Assembly: GCA_046335555.1 (NCBI GenBank)
Contig: JBKDHA010000023.1
Location: 1,153 to 65,152, forward strand
Direction: 5' to 3'
Length of the DNA: 64,000 nucleotides
Source of the DNA: Bacteroidota bacterium
GTDB lineage: Bacteria; Bacteroidota; Bacteroidia; Palsa-965
This document shows positions 27,635 to 43,367 of this stretch, one piece after another. Both the position numbers and the translations under genes were made by a program. The notes beneath the pieces are model-generated. The model worked only from the letters and a program-made list of their open reading frames with translations, was not told the DNA's origin and did no database searches. Numbering within the stretch: the first letter of the stretch is position 1; each line of letters begins with the position of its first letter.

Positions 27635-29869
27635 TTGTACCTTCGCGCCATGCGCAAAACCTTGTGGCTGCTGCTGTTTGTATTTGTTTCTGCCGGAGCA
27701 GCCGCGCAGGTAGCTGCTGTGCCCGGAGATTCAGTTTCCAAGCCAAAGCAGACAGAGCGCCCCAAACCGGAACCATTGGTTTTTAAGCCTACTCTGGGTT
27801 TGGGTGTTGGCATGTTTTCATACTATGGCGATTTATACACACGCAATCTGGTTAATCCGCAGGTAAGCCGCATTGGCTACGAACTCAGCCTTTCGCAACC
27901 GCTTGCCCCGTGGCTGCGTCTCGGTTTTTACACCTTGTTCGGAAAACTGGGTGCCAATGAACGCCTTATCACACGCAATCTCAACTTCGAATCACAGATC
28001 AGAGTTGGAGGAATGCATCTCGAATATAATTTCGGACATCTTATTCCGGCTAAAAGTATAATTCACCCCTGGTTCAATGTTGGTATCGAGTCGTTTGAGT
28101 TTCTGACGAAAACCGATTTATTTGATGCAAACGGTTTACGCTATCATTACTGGAACGATGGTTCGATTCGCAGTCTCGACGAAAGCGATCCGAATGCATC
28201 TCAGGCATTGTTTATCCAGCGCGATTACAATTATGAAACTGATGTACGTGAGCAAAATCTCGATGGTTTCGGGAAATATCCCGAACGCTCTTTTGCCGTT
28301 CCGGTTGGCGCAGGTTTTCTCATGCACCTCGATGAAAAATGGGATGCACGTTTGGGAGTAACGTTTCATTTCACATTTACCGATTACATAGATGGTGTTA
28401 CTCCCGCAAGCACAACAACCCGCGCCGGCAATGCCCGGAACGATCATTATGTAATGTCTGCCTTTTCATTGCGCTATAATTTAACCGGCCCGGCCGAGAA
28501 AACGGATACCGACGGTAACGATGCTTTCAGCGATGTTGATTACTATGCGCTTGATAATTCGGATTATGATAGTGATGGTGTAATTGATCTGAAAGATTCG
28601 TGCGAAGGAACACCGCCGGGCGTTGCTGTAAATGAAAAAGGTTGTCCGCTTGATGAAGATAACGATTACACAGCCGATTACCGCGATGATGAATTAGGTT
28701 CTGCTGCAGGTGCACTAACAGATGAAGTTGGCGTTACACTGACCGATTCAATAATTCTGCGCCGTTATCAGATGTATATGGATTCGACCGGTATGTTTGC
28801 TGCAACCGAAATTATTCGCTCACGCGATGGATTTAAACCCGGTGTTGCCGACAAGAAAATGTATCAGGTAATGCTTGGCAATTACTCAAACGGAGTACCG
28901 AATGAACTGCTCATCAAATTCCTGAGTATAACTGATATTGCCAGCAATCAGCTTCCTGATTCATCAACAACTTACACAGCCGGAAAATACACCGATCTTC
29001 TGGCTGCCGAAAAACGCAAACGCGCATTGAAAGAGCAGGGCTACACAGATGCCAAGGTTGTGTTCCGTAAGCCCGACGGAACGTTTCAGGTAGTTGATAA
29101 TGTGTTTGTAAATAATAACTCAACAACCAAACCCGCCGATACTGCTGCCGTTGCCGTTCAACCTGTTGATCCGAAAACAAATCCCAACAACAGCAGCAAC
29201 ACAAACCAACAGCAGAACACAACGCAGACTCCTGTTGATTCGGCCAAAACAGTTGCCGAAGTTGATCCTGTAACTGGTCAGTTGGTATTCCGTGTTCAGC
29301 TTGGTGCTTTTAAACAGCCGCTTTCACCCTCAGTATTTGCAGATGTTCCGGATCTGGTAATGATTCGCACAAGCGATGGATTGTATAAATACATGACCGG
29401 CTCATTCAGCACATTTGAGCAGGCAGCAGCGCGCAAAGCGGTTATGCTTGTGCAAGGCTACAAAGGTGCATTTATAGCAGCCTACAAAGACGGCAAGCGA
29501 GTTGCGCTCACTGATGCCGGCGCTACAGTAATAAAAACTTCAACTCCTGCACCACCCGAAAACTTGAGTGAGACCAATGCGCCGAGTGCCGGGATGACGC
29601 AGTCAGTTACATTTAAAGTACAGCTCGGTGTATTCCGCAGCGAGCCTCCGGCAGAAATCAAAGCAAAAATTGCACAGCTCAGCGGTGTAGAAACAAGCAC
29701 AACTCCTGCCGGACTTATTCGCTACACCGTTGGTTCAACTGCCGATTATGCCGCTGTTGTAGCCCTGCGCAACGAACTCAAAGCAAAAGGGTTTGATGAT
29801 GCTTTCATCATTGCCTTCTTCCAGGATCAACCGATTCCGGTTTCTGAAGCTTTGGAAATTCAGAAATAG
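27635..29869 (+). CDS. Envelope protein with an N-terminal beta-barrel-like region, thrombospondin-type-3 Ca-binding repeats and three C-terminal SPOR domains
   Basis: Signal peptide MRKTLWLLLFVFVSAGAAAQ. TSP3/OmpA-like Asp-rich repeats (DSDGVIDLKDSC..., CPLDEDND). Three SPOR-like modules: MYQVMLGNYS...AGKYTDLLAAEKRKRALKEQGYTDAKVVF, VFRVQLGAFKQ...YKYMTGSF...QGYKGAFIAAY, and TFKVQLGVFRS...RYTVGSTADY...KAKGFDDAFIIAF. Confidence 0.65.
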   Translation: MYLRAMRKTLWLLLFVFVSAGAAAQVAAVPGDSVSKPKQTERPKPEPLVFKPTLGLGVGMFSYYGDLYTRNLVNPQVSRIGYELSLSQPLAPWLRLGFYTLFGKLGANERLITRNLNFESQIRVGGMHLEYNFGHLIPAKSIIHPWFNVGIESFEFLTKTDLFDANGLRYHYWNDGSIRSLDESDPNASQALFIQRDYNYETDVREQNLDGFGKYPERSFAVPVGAGFLMHLDEKWDARLGVTFHFTFTDYIDGVTPASTTTRAGNARNDHYVMSAFSLRYNLTGPAEKTDTDGNDAFSDVDYYALDNSDYDSDGVIDLKDSCEGTPPGVAVNEKGCPLDEDNDYTADYRDDELGSAAGALTDEVGVTLTDSIILRRYQMYMDSTGMFAATEIIRSRDGFKPGVADKKMYQVMLGNYSNGVPNELLIKFLSITDIASNQLPDSSTTYTAGKYTDLLAAEKRKRALKEQGYTDAKVVFRKPDGTFQVVDNVFVNNNSTTKPADTAAVAVQPVDPKTNPNNSSNTNQQQNTTQTPVDSAKTVAEVDPVTGQLVFRVQLGAFKQPLSPSVFADVPDLVMIRTSDGLYKYMTGSFSTFEQAAARKAVMLVQGYKGAFIAAYKDGKRVALTDAGATVIKTSTPAPPENLSETNAPSAGMTQSVTFKVQLGVFRSEPPAEIKAKIAQLSGVETSTTPAGLIRYTVGSTADYAAVVALRNELKAKGFDDAFIIAFFQDQPIPVSEALEIQK

Positions 29870-29891
29870 CAATGTTTTTAGTACTAGGATG

Positions 29892-30014
29892 CATCCGGTT
29901 TGTAACCGGATGTGTTCTTTGAATTCAGTTTGTAACTGAATTCGGCACTGTGCCTTGAGAGAAGTTGCAAACTTCTCTCAAACTTTCTGCATCAAAGTTT
30001 TTCGCCTCTGGCGA
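29892..30014. terminator. Array of 5-6 consecutive hairpins between convergent genes, acting as bidirectional terminators or REP-like structured elements
   Basis: Stems read directly from the sequence. CATCCGGTT-TGT-AACCGGATG (29892-29912, followed by TGTTCTTT). GAATTCAGTT-TGT-AACTGAATTC (29921-29943). GGCAC-TG-TGCC (29944-29954). TGAGAGAAGTT-GCA-AACTTCTCTCA (29956-29980). AAACTTT-CTGCATC-AAAGTTT (29980-30000). CGCC-TCT-GGCG (30004-30014). Confidence 0.55.
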
Positions 30015-30091
30015 ATTAAACTTTCCGCAACATCCTGCAAAAAGAGAGCCGCACAAGTTTGTGCAGCTCTCATAACATCAATCAAATAACA

Positions 30092-30883
30092 TTATTCTTT
30101 TTCAGCTTCTTCTTCCGGCTGCGGAATCGACTTCTTGGGGAAGTTGAACAAAACGCTGGTCAAAATCGGTAAGCCGAAAATTAGAACTGTGAGAATTGAG
30201 ATATACACATCTGCATCATGCGCGAGGAAATTGCTTACCGGATGCTTGGGATAGAAGTGCTCAATCAGCGAGAACAGCAGCTTAAAGCCCAAAATACCAA
30301 TTACAACAAAGGCTGATGTTTCAAGAAATGTATAGCGTTCCATAAGCTTTACAAAAGCCTGCGCCACAAAACGCATCGCCAGAATGCCTATGAATACACC
30401 TACCCAAATCAGCACAAGGTTTTTGCTGAATGCAACGGCTGCAAAAACATTGTCGATGGAGAATGCAAGATCCATTAATTCAACAAGTGCAACCGTAGCC
30501 CAGAATTGTCCCATCCAACCAACGGTAGCGCGATAAAGCCAATTCGATTTCTTGTCGAGTGTATCATCATCTTTTTCAGGCGTCATTTTACCTTTAAAAT
30601 AATCAAATACAAGATAAAGCAGGTAAAGTCCGCCAAGTGGTTTCAGCCACCAGATTTTGATGAGCCATGCGGCAAACAATAAACACAAACCGCGAAATAC
30701 ATACGCACCGATAATGCCATATTTCAACGCTTTGTTGCGCTGCTCTTTTGGCAAATCCATTACCATTGTAGCCAATACAGCAGCATTGTCAACCGAAAGC
30801 AAACTTTCGATGATAACCAGATTGCCAATTACCGCCAGGGCCGGCAGCGGGTTATTTATAATTTCCTGAATATACTCTTGCAT
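30092..30883 (-). CDS. terC: TerC-family integral membrane protein
   Basis: 263 aa polytopic membrane protein with the paired TerC signature motifs LSVDNAAVLA and FSIDNVFAAVA. Confidence 0.85.
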   Translation of the reverse strand: MQEYIQEIINNPLPALAVIGNLVIIESLLSVDNAAVLATMVMDLPKEQRNKALKYGIIGAYVFRGLCLLFAAWLIKIWWLKPLGGLYLLYLVFDYFKGKMTPEKDDDTLDKKSNWLYRATVGWMGQFWATVALVELMDLAFSIDNVFAAVAFSKNLVLIWVGVFIGILAMRFVAQAFVKLMERYTFLETSAFVVIGILGFKLLFSLIEHFYPKHPVSNFLAHDADVYISILTVLIFGLPILTSVLFNFPKKSIPQPEEEAEKE

Positions 30884-30907
30884 GAGTTTTCTGTTTTATC
30901 GTATTGA

Positions 30908-32437
30908 TTAATTAGCTACTAATTGAATTACAACAAGCCTTCCGCCTTCTTCGGCCGAAAGCAGCAACTTCTTGCCGTCGGTAAGTTCTACCATTTCTTT
31001 CGGGGCAATGAGTTTGTCTTCTGTAAGGTCTTTAAGTCCGCTCATCGTTTGGTTGACCAGCATCCATTTTCCGCCGTGAAAAACGAAATAGCCAACCGGC
31101 TTGCGCTGTTCGGGTGTCAGTTTTTCGTTGGGTGCAATGTTGCGGTTAATGTGCCAGGGATAAAGATACTGATTGTGATACACCATTACACGATGCTTTT
31201 CCTCCGTCCATTTTCCGGGCGAACGTTGTGCATACAAATTCAGAATCGGTAATTGTCCTTTATACACTGTGCCGCAGAACGGACAAGTAGGCCGTGTTGA
31301 ATTATCAAATACAAACCATTTCTGATCGCATTTCGGGTTTTGACAGGGCTGCATCAAATCAACTGTTTTGATAAGTGCATTTTCCCAGTCGTCGGCTGTT
31401 GGACGCTGCATTGGATTATGCAAACCGGTGATGAAGGCATCGTCAAACAGCTTTTTCAGATACGGGCCGGTTATGGTGTACGGAATCTTGTTGACGTCGG
31501 CCCAGGGCAATTGCGTTGGCTTTACCTGATTGAGCTTCGGGCGGTTGGTGGCATCAGTAGGATGCTCGACAAACAAAGCTTTTTGTCCCATCGAAAGCTC
31601 TTCGTCTTTCTGCGCATCGAGGTCATTCACTTTTCCGCCGCGCAACGGGTGACGGTAAAGCAAGTACATATAAATCATTACAGCCAGCGCATGCCGGTCG
31701 GTATTGATTGACGGGAGTTTGCGGCCAGCATCTGTTTTAGGCAGATGCTTTGTAGCCATAACTTCAGGCGCAATAAAATCGGGTGTGCCAATTACATCAG
31801 GCGGAAATTTTCCGGGAACTACAAGTCCGTCGATATCAATTATGGCTGCATTGCCGGTCATCGGATCAATCAATACATTTTTGTACGAAAGATCAGAATG
31901 CGCCAAACCGGCAGCGTGCATTCGTCGCACTGCGCGTGCAATACGTAAACAAATCAGCACATACTTGAACCAATCGCTCAGTTCACGCTTATCGAGATGC
32001 AGTTTGAAAGCAGGATTGCGAAACTGCGCGGCTGCAAACCATTTGCCTTCTTTTTCTTTCCCGGCAATACTTGCAATTTGTGCAGCAGCAGCATTGTAGC
32101 CATACGTAAAGAAAAAATGCTTCTGGTAAACCGGAGCAACAATTCCGATTTTTCCGTTGTACTCAACTACCTTGGTAGGCCAGCAATACAGGTCTTTCCA
32201 GTAATCGCCGCCGGCCTGATTGAAGATGCGTTCGCGGTAGGTATTTACAATTGTTGTAAGCCGTTCTTTCGTAGCATTATATTCTGATGTGCTCAGTTTA
32301 TCGCGAAAAAATGCAACTACATACGATTTGTCGGGACTGAAATACACATCCTTCAAACCGCCCTGCATCGGATCGCCGTTATCCACATACTGAACCTGTG
32401 AACCGTCGAGCGCATTTATTGTTATTGTCTTTGACAT
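30908..32437 (-). CDS. Atypical Ser/Thr protein kinase with C-terminal CxxC...CxxC zinc-ribbon and beta-rich tail (kinase of the TerY-P triad)
   Basis: Catalytic loop HAAGLAHSDLSYKNVLID (HxDxxxxN), activation segment IDIDGL ... GTPDFIAPEV (DFG-like ... APE). A Cys cluster CQNPKC-x14-CPFC follows, then a ~100-aa tail. Confidence 0.75.
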   Translation of the reverse strand: MSKTITINALDGSQVQYVDNGDPMQGGLKDVYFSPDKSYVVAFFRDKLSTSEYNATKERLTTIVNTYRERIFNQAGGDYWKDLYCWPTKVVEYNGKIGIVAPVYQKHFFFTYGYNAAAAQIASIAGKEKEGKWFAAAQFRNPAFKLHLDKRELSDWFKYVLICLRIARAVRRMHAAGLAHSDLSYKNVLIDPMTGNAAIIDIDGLVVPGKFPPDVIGTPDFIAPEVMATKHLPKTDAGRKLPSINTDRHALAVMIYMYLLYRHPLRGGKVNDLDAQKDEELSMGQKALFVEHPTDATNRPKLNQVKPTQLPWADVNKIPYTITGPYLKKLFDDAFITGLHNPMQRPTADDWENALIKTVDLMQPCQNPKCDQKWFVFDNSTRPTCPFCGTVYKGQLPILNLYAQRSPGKWTEEKHRVMVYHNQYLYPWHINRNIAPNEKLTPEQRKPVGYFVFHGGKWMLVNQTMSGLKDLTEDKLIAPKEMVELTDGKKLLLSAEEGGRLVVIQLVAN

Positions 32438-32457
32438 AACGTTTCGTTTACGGTTGT

Positions 32458-33888
32458 TCAGTAAAGTACGGCAATAGTACGATCATCGTGATTGCCCGGC
32501 GACCAGAAATCCATCCAACTCAGTAATTGAGTTGCTGCATTTTCGTTTTCAGGTGCAAACTGAACGGCAGCGCCATCAGCATTTTCGCCGCCGAGGTCTT
32601 TCCAGAGTTCATGCCATTTTTCGATGCGGCCGAGATTGGCATCGGTTTGAAATTTTGGATCTGTAATACCGTCGCTCATCAAAATAATAGCTGTAAAATC
32701 AGATACGATTCTGAAACCAATGCGTTTGTAGAACGAATTATCGGCAAAAATTTCGGGCATCGTCAGGAAGCGTGTTTGTCCGGCAAACTCTCCACCATCA
32801 GGCGTTCCGAGCACATTTATTTCATTATCGTCGGCACGATAAATTCCCATGCCTCCGTCGCCTACCATAAACGACATTACACTGTAACCGAAATCGAATT
32901 TGCGAAGCAAAACAAAGAGCAGTGTAGTCGAAAAGTCTTTCAGTTTTACCTCTGTGCCGGATTCGGTTGCTGCTGCGGCTGCAAAATTGGCAATCTGCTG
33001 ATGAACTTCAAACGGTGCTTTGCTGAACTTTTGCGTAAGAAACTCGTTGAGCGCATTTTTACTGGCTTCGTCTTTCAGGTTGTGGTAAGCAGTAATTATA
33101 TCATCCAGCTGTTTGTATTCATCAGCAGAAATGTTTTTGAAATAGTTCACCACACCATCACAGGCAATCTTCGATCCTTTGCGCGAAAACTTTGCACTTC
33201 CTGCTCCGTCGGCAACAGCAATTAATGCATAACCTGTTTGCTCATCGAAGAAGAACCCAAAATCATCATCGCGGAAAATACCTTCATGTGCGTGACTGCG
33301 TCCGCGTTTTGAGGCAACAACCAATTGATGCCCGAGTATTGCTGCCGATGTACATGTTTCATCATCTTTCCAGTACGGCGCATCGGTTGGAGACGGAATA
33401 TTTTTCCAAAGTTTTTTCGGATCCGGATTAATCACGAGCGAAATTTCCTTCTCGTGTTTGGCTTCGGTATTGGTTTTTACATCAAGTGTAAAAATCATTT
33501 TTACCCGGAACTCTCCTTGTTCAAGCGGTGTGCCTGAAATTGTGCCTGTAGCCGGATCGTAAATGATGCCGAGGCTTTGCGGGAATTCGAGATGAAAACT
33601 TTTTATTTTTTCGAGACCATATTTCGGCAGCGAAAATACTTGCGAGTAAGCTTTGTCAACCGTGCCGTTTGGCAGTTGCAGCAGTTTCTCGCGAATGTTG
33701 CTCAGTGCAATGTTTTCTTCCCAGTTCATAATAAGCGTTTCTGCGGTTGATGAAATCAGCCGGCATTGTTCAATTACTTCTGCACTGTCGATATATGAAT
33801 CGAGCAGGGCAGAGTGCTTGTCGGTGATTTCAACATTGCGCTGTTTGAGCAGTTGCGTGATGTATAAATGGCGTTGCGGTTTTTCCAT
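32458..33888 (-). CDS. PP2C-family Ser/Thr protein phosphatase with ~180-aa N-terminal extension containing a putative Ig-like (He_PIG-type) domain
   Basis: PP2C motifs SKRGRSHAHEG, IAVADGAGS, TTLLFVLL, VGDGGMG, ILMSDGITD, NHDDRTIAVL. The N-terminal DPATGTISGTPLEQGEF resembles a putative Ig domain. Confidence 0.75.
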   Translation of the reverse strand: MEKPQRHLYITQLLKQRNVEITDKHSALLDSYIDSAEVIEQCRLISSTAETLIMNWEENIALSNIREKLLQLPNGTVDKAYSQVFSLPKYGLEKIKSFHLEFPQSLGIIYDPATGTISGTPLEQGEFRVKMIFTLDVKTNTEAKHEKEISLVINPDPKKLWKNIPSPTDAPYWKDDETCTSAAILGHQLVVASKRGRSHAHEGIFRDDDFGFFFDEQTGYALIAVADGAGSAKFSRKGSKIACDGVVNYFKNISADEYKQLDDIITAYHNLKDEASKNALNEFLTQKFSKAPFEVHQQIANFAAAAATESGTEVKLKDFSTTLLFVLLRKFDFGYSVMSFMVGDGGMGIYRADDNEINVLGTPDGGEFAGQTRFLTMPEIFADNSFYKRIGFRIVSDFTAIILMSDGITDPKFQTDANLGRIEKWHELWKDLGGENADGAAVQFAPENENAATQLLSWMDFWSPGNHDDRTIAVLY

Positions 33889-33896
33889 TGCAGCAA

Positions 33897-34946
33897 TTAG
33901 CCCTGAGCCGAGTTAATATCCATACGGCCTTCGCCAAATCCATAGCGGCCCTGATTTCCGCACCATGGACAGGTACTTACTTCCTCGTTTCCGCAGCAGT
34001 GAATTTTACCGCACTGGCAAATACTTAAACCATATTGATTTCCGCACGAGGGACAAGTTGGCGCGCCCATAATTTCATCGGTACCAACTTTGTTGGATGC
34101 AGCATTTTCATCGCAGTAATCGAAGTACGATGAATCTACTAAGTAAGCACCAACAAGCCGATATACTAAGCTGTTCATTTCCATACCGCCAACCATTGTA
34201 GGTTGTGTGGTGCGGCGATATTTAATGAGATAAGGTTTTTGCGAATGCTGACATTTTCCGGTAAACACCGTGAAGTTGTGATCGAACCGCGGCTTTGGCG
34301 GCATTTCACGAGGATCAAGTTTTGAAATTACAGCTTCGTCAGGCTTTGAAAGCTCAAAGCCGGTACCGCCGGTTTCAACACTCATGCTGCTGCTTTTGAT
34401 AGAAGCAGTGACCCATTTGAAAAACGATTTGTATTGGTTTACAGATGTGTTTTTAAACATAAACACATTTTCCGTTAACTGCTGAAGTACTTGCAAATCG
34501 GCTTCTTCGCCAAACGAAACAGCCACCATGCTTGATTTCGGAGCCCAGTTTTTTTTCCACTCATTCATGGCCACCTGTGTATCATCGGTAGGCACACCAT
34601 CGGTAAACAAAAACACAATTGGTTTCCAATCGCCTTTTTGTTCGGCGGTGGTTTGTATGGTGTTTTTGCGCAGTTCGTACATCAGATGCCCGAGACCATT
34701 TCCCAGCGAAGTTCCGCCGCCAATAGGGAAGCGGGGCGGGTAGAAGGTTATAATTTCTTGAAGCGGAACCAACGTGCGAGCTTGACCAGCAAACACAACA
34801 ATGGAAATATGAACCGTTTCAAGTGCATACGGATCTTCTTTCAACGCTTTAATAATCATCGCCAAACCTTCTTCCACCATTTGAATAGGCTCGCCAATCA
34901 TCGACTCAGAGATGTCGATCAGGAAGTAAATCGGAAGTCGTCTCAT
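33897..34946 (-). CDS. TerY-like von Willebrand factor A (vWA) protein with C-terminal Cys-rich TerY-C metal-binding domain
   Basis: MIDAS motif FLIDISESM (DxSxS) and FLFTDGVPTDD. The ~140-aa C-terminal extension carries CPSCGNQYGLSICQCGKIHCCGNEEVSTCPWCG. Confidence 0.8.
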   Translation of the reverse strand: MRRLPIYFLIDISESMIGEPIQMVEEGLAMIIKALKEDPYALETVHISIVVFAGQARTLVPLQEIITFYPPRFPIGGGTSLGNGLGHLMYELRKNTIQTTAEQKGDWKPIVFLFTDGVPTDDTQVAMNEWKKNWAPKSSMVAVSFGEEADLQVLQQLTENVFMFKNTSVNQYKSFFKWVTASIKSSSMSVETGGTGFELSKPDEAVISKLDPREMPPKPRFDHNFTVFTGKCQHSQKPYLIKYRRTTQPTMVGGMEMNSLVYRLVGAYLVDSSYFDYCDENAASNKVGTDEIMGAPTCPSCGNQYGLSICQCGKIHCCGNEEVSTCPWCGNQGRYGFGEGRMDINSAQG

Positions 34947-34966
34947 GCAAATCGTTTTATTATCGG

Positions 34967-35236
34967 TTAGCGAAAAACAGACAGCAACAGCAGTAAAATA
35001 ACCAGCAAGATAAACTGTGCTGTATCTATTGCCAGCCCCTGTCCGAGCTGTGTTGGTTTAAAAGCTTTGCGCAGGAGCCGGAGTATAGGTTCAAGAATTT
35101 TTTCTATGAACATAAACTTCTTCAGTGCCTGCGGGTGCATTCTGTTTTTATACGGATACAGTTTTGAGTAGAGGAATAAACCAATAATCAGAAACTGTGC
35201 TGCAATTGAAATAATTAATCCTATCAAACCCATCAA
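34967..35236 (-). CDS. Small two-TM membrane protein, YggT-family-like
   Basis: 89 aa with two hydrophobic helices flanking FIEKILEPILRLLRKAFKP..GQGLAIDTAQFILLV, which resembles the YggT motif F..EP.L.P.R...P..GG.D.SP. The start overlaps the stop of the upstream vWA gene (ATGA). Confidence 0.45.
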   Translation of the reverse strand: MMGLIGLIISIAAQFLIIGLFLYSKLYPYKNRMHPQALKKFMFIEKILEPILRLLRKAFKPTQLGQGLAIDTAQFILLVILLLLLSVFR

Positions 35237-35868
35237 ATCACCATGTTAATTTCATCGGGCGGCGGTGGCAGTACAAGCTGCTCGGTTGAGTTTACACTTT
35301 GATTGCCTGTACCAATTGATGCCGATACCCACTTGAAAAATGAAGTAAGCGTATTGCTGTCGGCTGTATCGAGATGCACAACAGTGTCTGTAATTTCTTT
35401 GAGGAAACTGTCTTGTGCTGATGCACCAGCTGCGCAGGCAACAACCATTGCAAAGTTGTGCTGTCTGATTTTGGGCACCATTTCGCGGAACAGCGCAAGA
35501 TCCGAAGGCTTTCCGTCGGTCATCAGAAACAGCAGCGGCCGCCAGTCGCCTTTATCATCGCCAACGGCTGTTTTCATTTCGCGACGCATAACGTTGAGCA
35601 AAAGTTCCAATGCTGCGCCCATGTTTGTTGGTCCTGAATCAGGCGTTGTAATTTCGGGCAGCAGCAGTGATTCAAGATCGGTAAGCGGAACAATCTGCTT
35701 CACTTCACGGTCAAACGTAATCAGGCTCATCCACACTGTTTCCAGAGCATACGGATCCTGGCGGAGTTTGGAAAGCAACACCTGCAAACCGTTATTCACG
35801 GCATGGATTGGTTCGCCTTTCATGGAGCCCGAAGTATCGAGCAAGAGATAAACGGGTAATCGTCTCAA
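35233..35868 (-). CDS. TerY-like vWA domain protein (paralog 2, no TerY-C tail)
   Basis: MRRLPVYLLLDTSGSMKGEPIHAV MIDAS DxSxS motif and LFLMTDGKPSD. 211 aa. Confidence 0.8.
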   Translation of the reverse strand: MRRLPVYLLLDTSGSMKGEPIHAVNNGLQVLLSKLRQDPYALETVWMSLITFDREVKQIVPLTDLESLLLPEITTPDSGPTNMGAALELLLNVMRREMKTAVGDDKGDWRPLLFLMTDGKPSDLALFREMVPKIRQHNFAMVVACAAGASAQDSFLKEITDTVVHLDTADSNTLTSFFKWVSASIGTGNQSVNSTEQLVLPPPPDEINMVI

Positions 35869-35888
35869 AGCAATAACTAATTATGCTG

Positions 35889-36527
35889 TTAAACTACAAT
35901 GTTAACTTCGGGCGGCGGCGGCGGCAATTCATTAATGCCACCAACTTCGGTGCCTGAGTTTTCTACTTTCTGACTGCCGGTGCTGATTGAAGCCGACACC
36001 CATTTGAAGAATGCTTTGATGGTTGATGAATCAGCAGTATCAAGTCCAACTACAACATCCGTAACTTGTTTGAGAATGCTGGTATCGGCTCCTGAACCTG
36101 CAGCGCATGCAACGATTACGCCGGTTTTACGCTTCTTCAGCTCGGCAAGTCCGTTTTGCCATTGGTCTGTCGGACTTCCGTCGGTCATGATAAAAATGAG
36201 CGGTTTCCAATCGCCTTTTGCTTCGGCAGTTCCGCGGGCTACTTCGCGGTCGATGCATTGTGCAAGAAGGTTTAATCCTTCGCCCAAAGCTGTAGTGCCG
36301 GTGGCGCGAATTTCCTGCATTTGGAATGAAGCCAGATCAGTGAGCGGAATCAACTGACGTGCGGCTGAGTCGAATGTAATTACACTGATGTAAGCCGTTT
36401 CAAGTGCATGCGGATCTTGGCGAAGTGTTGAGATCAAAACTTGTACGCCATTCTTCACAGCCTCAATCGGCTCGCCGGTCATTGAGCCCGAAGTATCGAG
36501 CAAAAGGTAAACAGGTAATTTTCGCAT
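35889..36527 (-). CDS. TerY-like vWA domain protein (paralog 3, no TerY-C tail)
   Basis: MRKLPVYLLLDTSGSMTGEPIEAV and IFIMTDGSPTD. 212 aa, about 50% identical to paralog 2. Confidence 0.8.
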   Translation of the reverse strand: MRKLPVYLLLDTSGSMTGEPIEAVKNGVQVLISTLRQDPHALETAYISVITFDSAARQLIPLTDLASFQMQEIRATGTTALGEGLNLLAQCIDREVARGTAEAKGDWKPLIFIMTDGSPTDQWQNGLAELKKRKTGVIVACAAGSGADTSILKQVTDVVVGLDTADSSTIKAFFKWVSASISTGSQKVENSGTEVGGINELPPPPPEVNIVV

Positions 36528-36618
36528 ATCGTAATTGATTAAGTGAAGCTGTTAAGATCAGTACCTTCACTTTATTTATTGTTCCTCATTTTTGCTGAAT
36601 TCAGATCAGCAGTTTTGC

Positions 36619-37170
36619 TTAGTTGTAGCGGGCTAAATAGTCGCCGAGTCCGCCTTTCATGCCCATGCCAACAGCTTCAAACTTCCATTCAGCACCGCGC
36701 TTGTAGATACGGCCAAACTCAACGGCTGTTTCAATTGAGAAGTCTTCGTCAAGCTCATATTTCACCAATTCAGCACCCGAAGCATCAGCAATGCGGATGA
36801 ATGAATTACGAACCTGTCCGAAATTCTGGCGGCGTGTATCGGCATCGTGAATGGTAACTACAATACATATTTGTGTAACACGCTGATCGATGCGTGAAAG
36901 GTCAACAAGAACCTGCTCATCATCACCATCGCCATCGCCGGTCTTGTTGTCGCCGGTATGTGTAACAGCACCGTCGGGCGAGTTGGCATTGTTGTAAAAA
37001 ATAAAAAACTCATCGGCAGGAATTTTTCCGGCTTCGGTAAGCATAAACACCGAAGCATCAAGATCGAAAGCTTCGCCTGAGGCTGATGAATTGGTATCCC
37101 AGCCAAGACCGATGGTGAATTTTTGCGCATTAAGGGTTTCGCGCTGCCCTTTCTGAAGATTAATTGCCAT
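36619..37170 (-). CDS. terD: TerD-family tellurium-resistance/stress protein (Ca-binding TerD domain)
   Basis: MAINLQKGQ...GLGWD...FDLDASVFML...DEFFIFYNN...GDNKTGDGDGDDEQV...VVTIHDA...RRQNFGQV matches my memory of plasmid R478 TerD along the full length. Confidence 0.9.
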   Translation of the reverse strand: MAINLQKGQRETLNAQKFTIGLGWDTNSSASGEAFDLDASVFMLTEAGKIPADEFFIFYNNANSPDGAVTHTGDNKTGDGDGDDEQVLVDLSRIDQRVTQICIVVTIHDADTRRQNFGQVRNSFIRIADASGAELVKYELDEDFSIETAVEFGRIYKRGAEWKFEAVGMGMKGGLGDYLARYN

Positions 37171-37990
37171 GATGTGTATGAATATGTTGTTGAATAGTAT
37201 GGAGGTTAGTTCGGTATTCGTTCATCAGGTGATAATTATTTCCGTAAGCAAGATCACAAAGACGAAGTAAAAATTCAGGTGGCACATTTTCGAGCAGCAA
37301 CTGAAGGTCATTTGATCCGGTACTCAGAAGGAATTTTATCACGCGGGTATTAAAAGTAAAGATTTTCCCCCGAATGAGTTCCAGCAAACTGCTTACATCT
37401 TTTACCTCGCTGTAGTTCAGTACATTTTCAAACTCAGGGGCAATTGATGTATTAACCAGTTCAGCGAAATAGAGAAACATAAAATTCCCTTCAATACTCA
37501 GTCGCTCAATTTGCTGTTTCAGTACAAGTTCATGACTTCCGGTAATGCGTATATCGTCGAGCAGCAATACATTTCGGTTACTCAGAAAAACCTTGTCGAT
37601 GTGATACGTTCCTTGCGTAATAAGGTTAAACCGCTCTTCAAAACTCAGATTTCCGTAATCAATGCTATATGTTTTATAACGGTGAATGCGTGATTCGAGC
37701 AGCGATGGTTTACCCGAAGCAGCCAGAAACCGATTGATTTCGCGCACAAAATACTTCATCATTGCGCACGACGCAGTTGGAATGAAGTCATAAGGACTTG
37801 GAACCGCAACTGTTTGAGTTTCGCCGGTGAGTAGTTGTTTGTGTGTTTCAATAAAGCCTCGCGCAAGCGCAATTCCGAAGTTTTCGGCTTCGGTTTCATC
37901 ACCAAATTTGAAACGGCTGTATGCCTCTGCAGAAAACGATAAATCTGAAGCAGAGTTAATTTTATGCAGCGAAAATGAACTGAAACTCAT
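37160..37990 (-). CDS. Ter-operon-associated phosphoribosyltransferase-like protein (PRTase fold with C-terminal extension)
   Basis: PRPP-binding-type motif NVLLLDDIRITGSHE (hydrophobic x4, DD, x, TG). 276 aa, overlapping the terD start by 11 nt and the HAD stop by 4 nt. Confidence 0.7.
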   Translation of the reverse strand: MSFSSFSLHKINSASDLSFSAEAYSRFKFGDETEAENFGIALARGFIETHKQLLTGETQTVAVPSPYDFIPTASCAMMKYFVREINRFLAASGKPSLLESRIHRYKTYSIDYGNLSFEERFNLITQGTYHIDKVFLSNRNVLLLDDIRITGSHELVLKQQIERLSIEGNFMFLYFAELVNTSIAPEFENVLNYSEVKDVSSLLELIRGKIFTFNTRVIKFLLSTGSNDLQLLLENVPPEFLLRLCDLAYGNNYHLMNEYRTNLHTIQQHIHTHHGN

Positions 37991-38682
37991 AACTGAAATA
38001 AAATACGCAGCGAAGGTACTTCTTTATCATACAATAAACTCCGAAAACCGAAGTCTAACGCACCTTTAACATCTGCAATCGGGTTATCGCCGGTATGCAA
38101 TATCTGCTCTTTATTTAAAGTCTTTATTGTGCTGATATTATTGTAAGCACTTGCAAAAAAATCGGGCGATGGTTTGGCTGCACCATGTTCATCAGAATAC
38201 AACTGGAAATTCATGTATTCAGCAATGCCCAGTTGGTCAAGTCTTTTGCGCAGAGTACGGCCTTTTATAAAGCCTGTATTGCTGAGTAAACTGATGGTGA
38301 TATTGCTGCTGCGAAGTTCTTCAAACACTTCATGCGTATCAGCATTCAGTAAGCGGGGAGGATGCTGAAAAAACAGCGCTTCCATTTCTTCATAAAAAGC
38401 AGAGAGCTGCCCGGCTGTTACTTCATCCGCATTTTTGCTGAGGGCATTCAGTGCAAGAATCAGTAAACTTTCGTAGTGCGCAGTTTGTCCGCACATCACA
38501 CTGATATGATCACACAAACGGTCGAAATGCCGCAGTGTAGCCGATACTTCATTCAGCGACTGAGTCAAACCAAAACGGGATGCAAGCAATGCATCCCGTT
38601 TTGGTTTAAACTCAGGATCAGAAGCAATCAGCGTCATCCATAAATCAAATGAAATATGGTGTATGCCGCTGCTTTTTATCAT
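37987..38682 (-). CDS. HAD-superfamily hydrolase (phosphatase)
   Basis: Motif I ISFDLWMTL (DxDx[TV]L) and motif IV ILHTGDNPIADVKGA. 231 aa, translationally coupled to the flanking genes. Confidence 0.7.
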   Translation of the reverse strand: MIKSSGIHHISFDLWMTLIASDPEFKPKRDALLASRFGLTQSLNEVSATLRHFDRLCDHISVMCGQTAHYESLLILALNALSKNADEVTAGQLSAFYEEMEALFFQHPPRLLNADTHEVFEELRSSNITISLLSNTGFIKGRTLRKRLDQLGIAEYMNFQLYSDEHGAAKPSPDFFASAYNNISTIKTLNKEQILHTGDNPIADVKGALDFGFRSLLYDKEVPSLRILFQL

Positions 38683-39356
38683 TGATAAACGTAGTCACGA
38701 AGAATTTCGAGGAAATTATCGGTAGGCTGCGGATTGCCGAGCGCGCGGAATTTCCAGGTGCCGTCTTTGCGGTAAACCTCAGCAAAAATCATAGCTGCAG
38801 CGCCGCCCATGCTTTCATCACCTGAAATATTGTAGCGGGCAATTTCCTTGCCGCGAGCATCTACAGCGCGAATGAAGGCATTCTCGATCATCGAGAAGTT
38901 CTGGTTTTTCTGGCGGCCCTGATAAATGGTTACCATAAACAGCACTTTCGAATAACGCTGATCGAGTGAATCGAGTTTGGCTACAATTTGCTCATCATCG
39001 CCATCGCCTGCACCTGTGCGGTTATCGCCGGTAAGCCAGATGTGGCCGCTCGGGTGACGCTGCGAATTAAAGTAAATTACATCGCTTTCAAAAAGCGCAA
39101 TCTTCATGCCGTTGGCATGTTGCACTGTGCGGCCAAGATTAGCTACTTTATCGTTCGAATCGAGCAGGAAAGCAACGGCATCAAGATCATAATCTTCGCC
39201 TTTTTTTCCGCCAAACAGTTTGCCGAGGAATCCGCCGCCGCTTTGTTTGCGCATATCCCAGCCCAAACCAATGGTAACGGTTGAAAGGTCAAAACTTTCG
39301 CCTTTGTCGTTTTTGCGAAGGTCAATGGTTTGACCCTTCTGAAGGTTAATTGCCAT
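38679..39356 (-). CDS. TerD-family protein with a Gly/Lys-rich insertion
   Basis: MAINLQKGQTIDL...GLGWD..., with the insert GGGFLGKLFGGKKGEDYDLDAVAFLL and the motif GDNRTGAGDGDDEQI. Confidence 0.85.
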   Translation of the reverse strand: MAINLQKGQTIDLRKNDKGESFDLSTVTIGLGWDMRKQSGGGFLGKLFGGKKGEDYDLDAVAFLLDSNDKVANLGRTVQHANGMKIALFESDVIYFNSQRHPSGHIWLTGDNRTGAGDGDDEQIVAKLDSLDQRYSKVLFMVTIYQGRQKNQNFSMIENAFIRAVDARGKEIARYNISGDESMGGAAAMIFAEVYRKDGTWKFRALGNPQPTDNFLEILRDYVYQ

Positions 39357-39380
39357 AGAAATTGTGTTTGTGTAGTGTAA

Positions 39381-39956
39381 TTATTTGATCACCTGTCCGG
39401 TGTAATATTTCTCAACGAAGAACGAAAGATCTTTTTGATAACCAATGCCCGAAGCTTCAAACTTCCAGCCGTTATCGCGGCGGTAGAGACGACCGAATTC
39501 AACAGCTGTTTCAATCGAAAAATCTTCTCCTAATTCATACTTGCAAATTTCGCTGCCGTCGCGGTTGTCAACGATACGAATGTATGAATTGCGAACCTGT
39601 CCGAAATTTTGGCGGCGCTCAACGGCACTGTGAATGGTTACCACAAAAAGTAATTCCTGAATATCATTACTTACTTTCTGGAGGTCAACCATGATCGTTT
39701 CATCATCACCTTCGGCACTGTTTCCGCCTGTCGGATCATCCCCGGTATGATGCAGCGCACTGTCTGGCGAATCGGGCTGATTGTAAAAAATGAAATGCCC
39801 CTCAGAGGGAATCATTCGGTTTCCGTTCAGCATAAATGCTGAAGCATCAAGATCGAAATCGTGACCGGTTCCTTCGTTCGGATTCCAGCCAAGACCTACG
39901 CTCAGATTCGACAGTGAAATGTCAACCTTTTGGCCTTTTTGAAGATTAATAGCCAT
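39381..39956 (-). CDS. TerD-family protein (first gene of the operon)
   Basis: MAINLQKGQKVDISL..GLGWNPNEGTGHDFDLDASAFML...HTGDDPTGGNSAEGDDETI...VVTIHSAVERRQNFGQV. Confidence 0.9.
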   Translation of the reverse strand: MAINLQKGQKVDISLSNLSVGLGWNPNEGTGHDFDLDASAFMLNGNRMIPSEGHFIFYNQPDSPDSALHHTGDDPTGGNSAEGDDETIMVDLQKVSNDIQELLFVVTIHSAVERRQNFGQVRNSYIRIVDNRDGSEICKYELGEDFSIETAVEFGRLYRRDNGWKFEASGIGYQKDLSFFVEKYYTGQVIK

Positions 39957-40272
39957 GTTAAGAGTTAATTATCGAATTATAAAATGATTTATTGCGGGTT
40001 AATTCTGCTCCAAAATAGGAATTTTCGATAAAAAAGCCGGTATTTTTCATTTATCTGAGAGCCCGGTTAAATTTTATCCTTCGAATTTGTTACGGCTCAT
40101 TTTTCCTCATCCTGCGTTCTGTTTTTTGTCGATCCTCTCCAAGGATCGCTTGCAAAACAGGCCTTGTCTGAGAAAAAATGAACTCATAACAAATCTCAAA
40201 AACAAATTTTAACCAGACTCTAAAGAAAACCGAAAAATTTTTTCAGCCCAATCAGGAATGTACCTTTACTGC

Positions 40273-40659
40273 ATGAAAAAGATAATTACTTCAGCAGGCG
40301 CTCCGGCTCCGATTGGGCCATACAGCCACGGTGTTTTGGTTAATAATATGCTTTTCATTTCCGGACAGGTGGGCAAAGATCCTGTTACCGGTGAAATTCA
40401 TAACAGCACAATTGAAGCTGAAACCACCCGTGTTATGGAAAACCTTAAAAGCATTCTTACAGATGCTGGTATGGATTTTTCGCATGTTGTAAAAACAACC
40501 ATCTTCCTTACCGATCTCAACAACTTTGCAAAAGTGAATGGTGTTTACGGCAGTTATTTTGCCGAAGGAGCCGATTATCCGGCCCGCGAAACTGTTCAGG
40601 TATCACGTCTTCCGCTTGATGTGAGTGTAGAAATTTCGATGATTGCCGTAAACGCATAA
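40273..40659 (+). CDS. ridA: RidA/YjgF-family reactive-intermediate deaminase
   Basis: MKKIITSAGAPAPIGPYSHGV...FISGQ...TTIFLTDLNNF, typical of RidA. Start chosen at an internal Met of the 40258 ORF. Confidence 0.85.
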   Translation: MKKIITSAGAPAPIGPYSHGVLVNNMLFISGQVGKDPVTGEIHNSTIEAETTRVMENLKSILTDAGMDFSHVVKTTIFLTDLNNFAKVNGVYGSYFAEGADYPARETVQVSRLPLDVSVEISMIAVNA

Positions 40660-40663
40660 CTGC

Positions 40664-42617: not shown

Positions 42618-43367
42618 ATGAGCAAGGCTGAAGCAGAAAAACCGTGGTTTGAAGGATGGTTCGACAGTCAGTATTATCACATTCTTTATCATAAGAGGAA
42701 TGAGGAAGAGGCTGCACGGTTTATTTCAAGACTTTATTCGAAACTTAATCCACAAACCGGCAGCCGTGCACTTGATCTGGCTTGCGGTAAAGGGCGGCAT
42801 TCAGTTGAATTGAATAAACTCGGACTTGATGTAACCGGAATTGATCTTTCTCCTTCGAGTATCGAAACTGCTTCTGGTTTAGCTAAAAGCGGACTTGAAT
42901 TTTATGTTCACGATATGCGTCGTCCGTTTCGTATTCGCTACTACGATTTGGTGTTCAATTTGTTTACCAGTTTCGGCTATTTCAATCACGAACGCGAAAA
43001 TCGCTCGGTGCTCGAATCGGTTTACAAAGGTTTGAAGCCCGGCGGACGTTTGGTAATTGATTTTTTCAATGCCGAATGCGTTTGTGCGGCAATAGGTTCA
43101 GGAAAAACATATACCGAAACAGCAGGGGGAATTGATTTCAGCATTCAAAAAAATACAGACGGCAAGTTTGTACATAAATACATTTCTTTCACTGATAAGG
43201 GTATTGACTACAGATTTCGTGAACAAGTTCAATTGCTTCGACTTCAAGATTTCAGCAACTTAATGAACGATTTATTTGAAGTGACCGATATTTTTGGGGA
43301 TTACGAATTGAATGCTTTTGATGAAAAAGTTTCATCGCGACTTATTCTCATCGCCCGAAAACGCTGA
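42618..43367 (+). CDS. Class I SAM-dependent methyltransferase
   Basis: ALDLACGKGRHSVEL motif I and LKPGGRLVID. Confidence 0.7.
   Translation: MSKAEAEKPWFEGWFDSQYYHILYHKRNEEEAARFISRLYSKLNPQTGSRALDLACGKGRHSVELNKLGLDVTGIDLSPSSIETASGLAKSGLEFYVHDMRRPFRIRYYDLVFNLFTSFGYFNHERENRSVLESVYKGLKPGGRLVIDFFNAECVCAAIGSGKTYTETAGGIDFSIQKNTDGKFVHKYISFTDKGIDYRFREQVQLLRLQDFSNLMNDLFEVTDIFGDYELNAFDEKVSSRLILIARKR

Follow-up and report, generated by a model that had tools for sequence, protein, structure and literature searches.

A compact chromosomal version of the enterobacterial plasmid ter locus in Bacteroidota

Introduction

The classical ter loci confer resistance to tellurite, phages and colicins; for the R478 cluster, phage inhibition and colicin resistance are attributed to Whelan et al. 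(1995). The classical locus of IncHI2 plasmids (R478 type), which is also found in enterobacterial ter islands, consists of terZABCDEF and a terW/terY/terX "biosynthetic" operon, about 20 genes in two divergent operons. TerD is cited as a Ca2+-binding protein (Pan et al. 2011, in PMC5395568), and in K. pneumoniae, resistance to tellurite and to zinc depends in part on terC (PMC12054061). Proteins of the TerC family act in Mn export or insertion and in the metalation of exoenzymes, and the YkoY family moves Mn2+ and metalates exported enzymes (PMC10550928, PMC12096827). In Bacillus subtilis, the YkoY-type protein MeeY is encoded by a lone gene that a yybP-ykoY Mn riboswitch controls.

The TerY-P triad was defined computationally by Anantharaman, Iyer and Aravind (2012), as summarized in PMC11090510 and PMC4978471. 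Its genes are adjacent and encode a TerY-like vWA protein whose MIDAS is intact, a phosphatase of the PP2C type and a Ser/Thr kinase with a zinc ribbon at its C terminus. Later accounts (PMC11090510, PMC8115787) credit the same study with the hypotheses that the triad is a metal-sensing phospho-switch and that the neighboring cluster makes a nucleoside-like metabolite. TerY-P genes are elsewhere joined to McrBC/CoCoNuT, helicase-nuclease or WXG/FtsK modules. The TerY-P defense system of Gao et al. (2020) is described as a cassette of three genes that stands alone and whose anti-phage effect was demonstrated by experiment; the system was retested in P. aeruginosa (bioRxiv 10.1101/2022.08.12.503731). 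Kinases of the Gao type are described with an OB fold, and those linked to CoCoNuT with a zinc ribbon.

Here we analyze a twelve-gene locus within a 64,000-nucleotide stretch of DNA from a Bacteroidota bacterium (the window). The locus is a widespread, compact chromosomal Bacteroidota version of the long-known enterobacterial-plasmid ter locus and not a new system. No experimental study of a cluster of this kind from Bacteroidota turned up in the literature searched, in agreement with the initial annotation of this DNA.

Results

Twelve co-directional minus-strand ORFs extend from 39956 to 30092 (Table 1), in the order TerD, TerD, HAD, PRTase, TerD, vWA, vWA, small YggT-like protein, vWA+TerY_C, PP2C, kinase, TerC. 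This ORF listing agrees exactly with the initial annotation, and Pfam searches bore out its domain calls for three TerD, HAD, PRTase, three vWA, TerY_C, PP2C, kinase and TerC; the PRTase matches PRTase_3 and not the suggested PRTase_2. It was likewise confirmed that TerD, TerC and PRTase-HAD genes lie together in one tightly packed unit and that a TerY-P triad (vWA, PP2C and kinase) is present. In operon order, the junctions measure +24, -4, -4, -11, +91, +20, -4, +20, +8, +20 and +24 nt. The spacing of 0 to 24 nt or ATGA overlaps claimed earlier describes most of them, but not the 91-nt gap or the 11-nt overlap. From the spacing, we infer a single transcription unit running from about 40.0 kb to a terminator at 30.05 kb.

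TABLE 1 Coordinates of the twelve genes and of the associated noncoding features
Feature	Length (aa)	Window positions	Strand	Profile match or property
TerD1	191	39381..39956	-	Pfam TerD 229 bits
TerD2	225	38679..39356	-	Pfam TerD 185 bits
HAD-superfamily hydrolase	231	37987..38682	-	Pfam Hydrolase 43 bits, HAD_2 37.6 bits
PRTase_3 (ComF-like) phosphoribosyltransferase	276	37160..37990	-	Pfam PRTase_3 245 bits
TerD3	183	36619..37170	-	Pfam TerD 240 bits
vWA1	212	35889..36527	-	Pfam VWA 54.5 bits; TerY-type; MIDAS DTSGS
vWA2	211	35233..35868	-	Pfam VWA 50 bits; TerY-type; MIDAS DTSGS
Small protein	88-89	34967..35236	-	Pfam YGGT 24.9 bits, E=2.8e-5, below GA 27
vWA3+TerY_C	349	33897..34946	-	Pfam TerY_C 144 bits, VWA 49.6 bits
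PP2C phosphatase	476	32458..33888	-	PP2C_2 126 bits
Eukaryote-like Ser/Thr kinase	509	30908..32437	-	Pfam Pkinase 42 bits
TerC-family membrane protein	263	30092..30883	-	Pfam TerC 180 bits
Upstream intergenic region		39957..40257	-	Common with divergent RidA gene
TerD3/vWA1 intercistronic gap (91 nt)		36528..36618	-	Two predicted stem-loops
Intrinsic-terminator-like hairpin		30044..30071	-	12 bp, 7 GC, then TTTTT

The intergenic region upstream of TerD1 is the probable promoter region. It holds no exact TAnnTTTG; the sequence that comes closest to a Bacteroidota -7 element, TATTTTGG, is a relaxed match (n=1) and lies 61 nt 5′ of the TerD1 ATG. An Rfam search returned no element and no Mn riboswitch. 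At the other end, the strong terminator-like hairpin, which lies 21 nt 3′ of the TerC stop codon, is predicted to end the operon. The 91-nt gap separates a TerD/biosynthetic half from a TerY/kinase half. The gap and its hairpins could let these halves be expressed to different degrees; it contains no terminator-like U-tract. Across relatives, the length of this junction varies from -4 to +2806 nt. The operon is flanked by housekeeping genes; its immediate flanks contain neither a tRNA nor an integrase, and GC content is flat, without a shift.

The locus has the makeup of classical ter: multiple TerD proteins, TerC and, ahead of PP2C and the kinase, TerY paralogues of which one has TerY_C. Like the window, the IncHI2 locus contains a block of vWA, TerD-family protein (TerX), vWA, vWA+TerY_C, PP2C and kinase, with proteins 35 to 70% identical, together with TerD/TerE-like proteins (44 to 49% identical) and a TerC-family membrane protein. 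Three TerY paralogues, of which the third has TerY_C, with PP2C and kinase behind them are the standard arrangement, IncHI2 ter included, and the triplicated vWA that had been called unusual is not. The differences lie in size, setting and accessory genes. The window operon occupies one strand of a chromosome, whereas classical ter resides on a plasmid or island, and it lacks the TerB, TerA, TerZ, TerW, ATP-grasp, StiP, HpcH and DUF4236 of IncHI2 ter; in Pfam searches, none of the 12 ORFs matched the TerB, TerA/TerZ, TerW or TelA families. The window PRTase belongs to PRTase_3, whereas enterobacterial ter has a different PRTase, and nothing related to the window HAD was found in the plasmid locus at an E value of ≤1e-3. 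The small membrane protein is additional, and TerC is of the YkoY type rather than the Alx type of IncHI2 ter. Compared with the computational TerY-P triad, the window has three vWA paralogues, a further all-beta domain on the kinase, an N-terminal helical and Ig-like extension on the PP2C, and TerD/TerC as partners.

The TerD paralogues carry Ca2+-binding motifs of the type GDN(R/K)TG.GDGDDE, as read from their sequences. TerD1 (GDDPTG...GDDE), which is 44% identical to plasmid TerD/TerE, is predicted to be a TerD-family Ca2+-binding beta-sandwich protein. TerD2, with the motif GDNRTGAGDGDDE, is 52% identical to the TerD-family gene product encoded between the vWA genes of IncHI2 (the TerX position) and is classed from its sequence as a TerD paralogue that resembles TerX and contains an insertion. 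In the PRTase, the PRPP-binding loop of a Ter-linked PRTase-HAD module is present as LLDDIRITGSHE, with D145, D146, T150 and G151 invariant; no solved structural relative was found at E values of ≤1. Motif I of the HAD protein departs from the canonical DxDxT: it reads D13-L-W15-x-T17, and Trp occupies the Asp+2 position in 15/15 orthologues. The nucleophile Asp and motifs II to IV are intact, and D13, W15, T17, S134, K170, D199 and D204 are invariant in the same 15 orthologues. The closest solved structure, 2om6, carries FDVWNT. HAD, PRTase and TerD3 move as one cassette, which is absent in 6 and relocated in 2 of the 62 complete related loci; PRTase_3-HAD is kept in 56/62. In Chitinophaga fulva the cassette lies downstream on the other strand, and in Algoriphagus it sits within the vWA block.

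Among the vWA proteins, full-length vWA1 shares 70% identity with the product of the vWA gene that comes first in IncHI2 ter loci, and its matches occur in 2334 plasmids. vWA2, for which a TTG start codon was read directly, shows 53 to 56% identity to plasmid vWA proteins, with 53% in the comparison of the IncHI2 block. In vWA3, the MIDAS domain is followed by a Cys-rich metal-binding C-terminal domain. D11, S13, S15, T79 and D116, together with eight Cys and one His, are invariant among its orthologues, and identity to the plasmid orthologue is 43%. The small protein between vWA2 and vWA3 had been called YggT-like; a YGGT match was indeed seen, but it scored below the gathering cutoff, so the sequence is only suggestive of this family. 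Judged by eye, it apparently has two transmembrane segments. Its true start is likely the ATG that overlaps the vWA2 stop codon (TGATG), one codon in, which would change the overlap from -4 to -1 nt. The protein occurs in 61/80 related loci and is missing from the IncHI2 locus.

The PP2C and kinase genes follow vWA3 closely, with gaps of 8 and 20 nt (34946 to 30908), and both assignments were backed by fold models. The phosphatase consists of an N-terminal helical region (residues 3-67), a cadherin/dystroglycan-like Ig domain (81-154) and the PP2C domain proper (177-476) with a helical insert. Its aspartates are intact, and it is 35% identical to the IncHI2 plasmid PP2C. In the kinase, the HxD/DxD/APE motifs are intact, and a C-terminal 4-Cys zinc ribbon (C365, C370, C385 and C388, all invariant in sets of 20 and 28 orthologues) precedes an all-beta domain at about residues 395-508. 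Zinc-ribbon profiles match it weakly. Identity to the IncHI2 plasmid kinase is 58% over the full length, C-terminal domains included. Kinase and phosphatase are both predicted to be catalytically competent. TerC scored 250 bits on NCBIfam TIGR03716 (YkoY), for which the cutoff is 138.5, and by this profile it is a member of the YkoY/MeeY subfamily, unlike the classical Alx/TerC type; TerC of Flavobacterium and plasmid loci fell into the Alx subfamily. In contrast with the gene for MeeY, the window terC has no riboswitch and is the last of 12 cistrons.

Relatives were found in at least 547 species genomes. Those examined belong to Bacteroidota, save for contigs with seemingly mis-binned MAG labels. 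The nearest are Bacteroidia/Bacteroidota MAGs, Dinghuibacter and Chitinophaga, which supports the Bacteroidota assignment of the window. The vWA2-vWA+TerY_C-PP2C-kinase core was present in all 62 complete related loci, vWA1 in 57, TerD1 in 61, and TerC, in the 3′-terminal position, also in 61, despite a subfamily swap in the TerC slot (Alx-type in 45 loci versus YkoY-type in 16). The same 12-gene order was found in Chitinophaga costaii and several MAGs, and near variants in Flavobacterium, Pontibacter, Sphingobacterium, Algoriphagus, Taibaiella and others. The idea that the fused arrangement is special did not withstand this comparison. In many relatives, vWA1 comes immediately after TerD genes, at a spacing of -4 to +21 nt. 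Flavobacterium relatives carry TelA and further TerD genes.

Discussion

With a probability of roughly 0.6, we regard the operon as a chromosomal Bacteroidota ter stress locus that works by the proposed three-module metal/phospho-switch mechanism. Module 1 consists of two Ca2+-binding TerD proteins, the second TerX-like. Module 2, the mobile HAD-PRTase_3-TerD cassette, may use PRPP to ribosylate a base-like compound, whose ribosylated form it would then process. Since the HAD protein lacks the Asp+2 general acid/base (DxWxT), a 5′-phosphate-removing phosphatase step may be wrong, and as counterparts of the enterobacterial ATP-grasp, other PRTase, StiP and HpcH are missing from the operon, any metabolite made by it may differ from the enterobacterial one. 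Module 3, the invariant core, comprises TerY1-TerY2-(small membrane protein)-TerY3 with TerY_C-PP2C-Ser/Thr kinase-TerC. All proteins save TerC and the small membrane protein are apparently cytoplasmic. The TerC-family transporter, of the YkoY/MeeY Mn-handling type, would act as the membrane effector moving divalent metal, and on its cytoplasmic side the TerD proteins would partner it in a Ca2+/metal-dependent manner. The three vWA proteins, each with a MIDAS, would form a metal-dependent scaffold whose state the kinase/PP2C pair could switch by reversible Ser/Thr phosphorylation, so that transporter activity and small-metabolite production would respond to a metal or redox cue inside the cell. 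The expected phenotype would be metal, oxidant or envelope-stress tolerance, possibly with collateral phage or bacteriocin resistance as in enterobacteria.

A primarily anti-phage function, in which the triad would sense infection and trigger a TerC/TerD membrane or metabolite response, possibly abortive infection, appears unlikely. The window triad comprises the same three protein families, with identical domain composition, as TerY-P defense; TerY-P triads are described as protecting E. coli or P. aeruginosa against T7-like and Autographiviridae phages, and the R478 phenotypes reported by Whelan et al. also fit this reading. However, a search of PADLOC-DB 2.0.0 at an E value of ≤0.01 matched no family to the three vWA proteins or PP2C (the library may lack TerY-P models), and the kinase matched PD-T4-6, mad6 and MkoA, which are unrelated kinase models, weakly. 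Kinases of the Gao type are described with an OB fold. TerY-P defense has a stand-alone or variable context, whereas the window triad lies inside a conserved 12-gene ter operon with housekeeping flanks. Protein identity of 60 to 70% across the phylum and 35 to 70% to enterobacterial plasmids fits constrained physiology and not an arms race; such high conservation is atypical of fast-evolving defense islands. Together, these observations weigh against the defense-system framing of the initial annotation.

It is quite unlikely that the locus is in essence a regulated unit for metal export and exoenzyme metalation, in which a YkoY/MeeY-type TerC loads Mn2+ (or Ca2+/Zn2+) onto secreted proteins and all other genes encode regulators or chaperones of this transporter; the tellurite, phage and metabolite aspects would then be irrelevant in this host. 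The high YkoY score, membership in the subfamily of B. subtilis MeeY, which metalates exported Mn enzymes (PMC10550928, PMC12096827), the retention of TerC at the 3′ end, and the metal-binding nature of the vWA MIDAS, TerY_C and TerD domains are consistent with it. On the other hand, most relatives carry an Alx-type protein in the TerC slot, which ties the operon to the TerC superfamily at large and not to MeeY function in particular. The absence of an Mn riboswitch also speaks against this explanation, and the conserved PRTase_3-HAD cassette is left unaccounted for. We consider it very improbable that the twelve genes are two or three independent neighboring units (TerD/biosynthetic and TerY-kinase-TerC) and not one system. 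The stem-loop gap between TerD3 and vWA1 would suit such a division, as would the six loci without the HAD-PRTase-TerD cassette and its opposite-strand position in Chitinophaga fulva, but the gap has no terminator-like U-tract, TerD genes abut vWA1 in many relatives, TerD1 is almost always kept, the Algoriphagus cassette lies inside the vWA block, and the same gene families occur together in the enterobacterial locus.

Organization of the operon

Twelve minus-strand genes, extending from 39956 to 30092, encode in order TerD1, TerD2 (TerX-like), HAD, PRTase, TerD3, vWA1, vWA2, a small membrane protein, a third vWA with a C-terminal TerY_C domain, PP2C, kinase, and TerC, as described in the initial annotation. 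Pfam searches upheld its domain calls with the exception of two labels. The PRTase is a PRTase but belongs to family PRTase_3 rather than PRTase_2, and the YggT-like label of the 89-aa membrane protein corresponds to a match below the Pfam threshold. Spacing of 0 to 24 nt or ATGA overlaps, also claimed there, holds for most junctions, but one gap of 91 nt and one 11-nt overlap depart from it. The 91-nt gap, the only long intercistronic gap, contains two predicted stem-loops (minimum free energy [MFE], −17.1 kcal/mol for the 91 nt), and no U-tract follows the stem-loops. At the TerD-vWA1 junction, an 83-nt gap was also found in L005 (a 94% relative), and the spacing was −4 to +21 nt in many other relatives. 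vWA2 begins with a TTG codon, and the small membrane protein probably begins at an ATG overlapping the stop codon of vWA2.

Features of the ter operon (minus strand) and its surroundings, with conservation and identity to the IncHI2 plasmid proteins
Feature	Position	Pfam match (bits)	Present in loci	Identity to plasmid counterpart
TerD1		TerD (229)	61/62 (TerD1-like)	44-49% (TerD/TerE)
TerD2		TerD (185)		52% (TerX)
HAD	37987-38682	Hydrolase (43), HAD_2 (37.6)	56/62
PRTase		PRTase_3 (245)	56/62
TerD3		TerD (240)		44-49% (TerD/TerE)
Long intercistronic gap	36528-36618
vWA1		VWA (54.5)	57/62	70%
vWA2		VWA (50)	62/62	53%
Small membrane protein	34967-35236	YGGT (24.9; threshold, 27)	61/80
vWA+TerY_C		VWA (49.6), TerY_C (144)	62/62	43%
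PP2C	32458-33888	PP2C_2 (126)	62/62	35%
Kinase	30908-32437	Pkinase (42)	62/62	58% (all 509 residues)
TerC	30092-30883	TerC (180)	61/62
Terminator-like hairpin	30071-30044
SAM methyltransferase	42618-43367	TehB (26.8; threshold, 20.4)
ZIP-family metal transporter	43370-44149
Tandem 200-aa genes	19032-19634, 19694-20296	OmdA/YdeI domain in each
450-aa protein	26173-27525	Nis1 only (27.4; cutoff, 27)

Comparison with the classical plasmid ter locus

The ter locus was already known in the 1990s and occurs commonly on plasmids of clinical importance. Matches to vWA1 were present in 2334 plasmids, chiefly IncHI2-type replicons of Klebsiella, Escherichia, Enterobacter, and Salmonella, with 60 to 80% identity in 2236 of them and, among the records listed, three matching places in each. 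In the ter region of one such E. coli plasmid (NZ_MF678350.1), one strand carries terZ-(terA)-terB-terC-terD-(terE). The opposite strand carries genes for ATP-grasp, PRTase, a hypothetical protein, StiP, HpcH, DUF4236, and terW, followed on the same strand by vWA, a TerD-family gene (TerX), vWA, vWA+TerY_C, PP2C, and kinase. The Bacteroidota operon is simpler and confined to a single strand, and the proteins of its TerY1-3/PP2C/kinase block are close orthologues of those of the plasmids, with up to 70% identity. Neither the window PRTase_3 nor the HAD matched any protein of the plasmid locus at an E value of ≤1e-3.

The triplicated vWA had been described as unusual. Since the IncHI2 locus carries the same block with orthologous proteins, the three vWA genes plus the TerY-P triad (vWA, PP2C, and Ser/Thr kinase) are, as judged by sequence comparison, the canonical TerY1/TerY2/TerY3-PP2C-kinase block of the classical locus. 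The system is already known, computationally from 2012 and phenotypically, for the enterobacterial orthologue, from the 1990s; the operon in the window is a further example of it and no new kind of system. Literature searches for experimental Ter-gene work in Bacteroidota gave only one comparative-genomics mention, and the statement that no such cluster had been characterized experimentally in this phylum appears correct within the literature searchable here.

Identity between the plasmid (L084) and Chitinophagaceae-type operons equals that within the phylum, at 70 to 74% for vWA1 (35889-36527 in the window) and 58 to 65% for the kinase. In quick neighbor-joining trees, plasmid vWA1 and kinase grouped with the clade of the window, and the plasmid TerY_C vWA fell outside both sequence clades of the operon. 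Together, these observations hint that the TerY/PP2C/kinase block was transferred between phyla.

Conservation and modular variation in Bacteroidota

The vWA+TerY_C protein had 3387 relatives at an E value of ≤1e-10, and in a scan with each species represented by a single genome, at least 547 genomes, the majority from Bacteroidota, carried a relative. Identity of this protein was typically 62 to 65% in Flavobacterium, Chitinophaga, Pontibacter, and Aquimarina, and that of the kinase was 64 to 70% even in members of the Bacteroidales such as Dysgonomonas, Tannerella, and Culturomica. Every open reading frame in 83 loci (80 from the species scan and 3 others) was classed by its BLASTP match to the twelve proteins of the window operon, and gene presence was counted in the 62 loci with full flanks.

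Relatives of the operon comprise 9 to 14 genes on a single strand. The exact gene order of the window recurred in Chitinophaga costaii and several metagenome-assembled genomes (MAGs), Flavobacterium loci additionally carried TelA, DUF8226, and more TerD genes, and Pontibacter carried one extra TerD. The HAD-PRTase-TerD3 trio varies as one cassette: six loci lack it, in Algoriphagus it separates vWA1 from vWA2, and Chitinophaga fulva carries it downstream, on the opposite strand.

The 3′ slot appears to keep a TerC-superfamily transporter while its subfamily is exchanged at a fixed position, since the YkoY type occurs in the clade of the window and the Alx type in Flavobacterium and the plasmids. 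The window TerC belongs to the YkoY/MeeY subfamily (TIGR03716, 250 bits versus a cutoff of 138.5). The proteins of the Flavobacterium locus L001 (14013-15011) and the plasmid terC (3218-4258) belong to the Alx subfamily (TIGR03718, 350 and 360 bits). Among the 62 loci, 16 carried a window-like TerC and 45 a divergent one.

The operon sequences formed two clades that cut across taxonomy, with species of one genus placed in different clades (C. costaii [L014] versus C. fulva [L078], and L008 versus L049 in Ferruginibacter). This split points to ancient paralogy or to transfer among members of the Bacteroidota. A 15.6-kb contig deposited as "MAG: Synechococcus sp. UW140" (L004, CALRTD020000039.1) carries the same operon with 93 to 100% protein identity to the window; it is almost certainly mis-binned, since all other relatives with credible labels are Bacteroidota. 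The labels of L019 ("Bifidobacterium") and L028 ("Akkermansia") are similarly odd.

Motifs and domains of the encoded proteins

The MIDAS motif DxSxS is retained in all three vWA domains, and in the third vWA the DxSxS, T, and D residues are invariant across 16 orthologues, as are eight Cys and one His of the TerY_C domain. The kinase retains the HxD...N, DxD, and APE motifs and has four invariant cysteines that form a zinc ribbon. Its C-terminal end is a confidently modeled all-beta domain (residues 395 to 508), for which a profile search of the PDB returned only zinc-ribbon noise. Conserved residues R416, W428-H429, and N462 prompted consideration of an FHA domain here. This candidate was rejected: hhalign of a 21-sequence profile against the sequence of the FHA-domain protein GarA gave a probability of 0.8%, and none of the 21 orthologues had a Pfam FHA match.

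The AF2 model of PP2C (pLDDT, 91) consists of an N-terminal helical region (residues 3 to 67), a beta-sandwich (residues 81 to 154) that agrees with a weak He_PIG match, and a PP2C domain with a helical insert. Although this PP2C is apparently cytoplasmic, the beta-sandwich is an Ig-like domain of the cadherin/dystroglycan type, whose fold is mostly found on extracellular proteins. The plasmid PP2C alignment (residues 66 to 476) also covers this region.

PRTase_3 retains the PRPP loop; a PDB profile search found no solved relative at an E value of ≤1. Motif I of the HAD protein reads DLWxT, in which the nucleophile Asp is kept and the position of the Asp+2 general acid/base is occupied by an invariant Trp in 15 of 15 orthologues. 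The closest solved structure, 2om6 from Pyrococcus horikoshii, has the same DxWxT feature (FDVWNT). Because motif I is atypical, simple nucleotide-to-nucleoside dephosphorylation by this protein should not be assumed.

The N termini of the vWA, PP2C, and kinase proteins, judged from their sequences, have no evident signal peptide or transmembrane segment, and the operon apparently encodes no membrane proteins other than TerC and the small protein.

Possible function of the operon

The identity and integrity of the operon parts, their tight linkage, and their modular conservation are directly established. Members of the TerC family transport Mn2+ and load metal into exported enzymes (PMC10550928, PMC12096827), and terC of Klebsiella pneumoniae affects resistance to tellurite and zinc (PMC12054061). 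TerD binds Ca2+ (Pan et al., 2011, as cited in PMC5395568). According to the proposal of Anantharaman et al. (2012), as relayed in PMC11090510 and PMC8115787, the TerY-P triad would act as a phospho-switch that senses metal, and the enzymes linked to ter would make a nucleoside-like metabolite.

Because only TerC and the small protein appear membrane borne, the signal sensed would be intracellular. In the model that we favor, a complex would assemble at the cytoplasmic face of the TerC transporter, with the TerD and TerY proteins as metal-dependent adaptors and the kinase/PP2C pair setting its state, and PRTase_3 and HAD would yield a ribosylated small molecule. A candidate region for accepting phosphate from the kinase is the Ser/Thr-rich stretch that follows a conserved FFKWV(S/T)ASI motif. 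We assign a probability of roughly 15% to the operon being a self-contained minimal Ter machine with undescribed chemistry, in which PRTase_3 and the DxWxT HAD make a new ribosylated molecule whose production or TerC-family export is gated by the TerY1-3/PP2C/kinase phospho-switch, giving a broad stress or anti-phage response in a phylum in which such a pathway is not known to have been studied.

A primarily anti-phage role is possible, since TerY-P cassettes that stand alone protect against T7-like phages and the R478 ter cluster is reported to inhibit phages (Whelan et al., 1995), but it seems rather unlikely given the housekeeping gene context, the very high conservation, and the lack of a convincing PADLOC match. 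We likewise doubt that the operon is a pure metal-export unit: the YkoY-type TerC is consistent with such a unit, which would nevertheless leave both the PRTase-HAD cassette and the interchangeable TerC subfamilies unexplained. The recurrent co-occurrence of the genes and, in many relatives, the very short spacing between TerD and vWA1 argue strongly against independent units that merely adjoin, and we consider that reading highly improbable.

Being compact and having natural variants, the Bacteroidota operon would serve well as a model for the ter system. The variants differ in whether they have the PRTase-HAD cassette and the small membrane protein and in whether TerC is of the YkoY or the Alx type, and they could act as a ready-made dissection. 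Several carriers, such as Flavobacterium johnsoniae and Chitinophaga pinensis, are genetically tractable.

Operon ends and flanking genes

The strong terminator-like hairpin lies 3′ of TerC, and a 300-nt region upstream is common to the operon and a divergent RidA gene. The Bacteroidota −7 element TAnnTTTG had no exact match upstream of the operon, only TATTTTGG, and a sigma-70 scan performed no better than shuffles (14 found versus 18.2 expected). An Rfam scan of 29000-41000 (E value, ≤1) returned two chance-level matches only and no yybP-ykoY riboswitch.

GC content is flat across the locus, the whole window contains no tRNA, and no mobile-element genes were seen in the flanks examined. The flanking genes are ordinary chromosomal genes, encoding an M32 carboxypeptidase, saccharopine dehydrogenase, LOG, a SPOR protein, RidA, asparagine synthase, a methyltransferase, a ZIP transporter, and RlmL. 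The methyltransferase gene, about 2.7 kb upstream on the other strand, exceeded the threshold for TehB (tellurite resistance), one among many generic methyltransferase matches, and the ZIP-family gene directly follows it. Elsewhere in the window, the product of each of the two tandem genes has an OmdA/YdeI "bacteriocin-protection" domain, and the 450-aa protein has a borderline match to Nis1.
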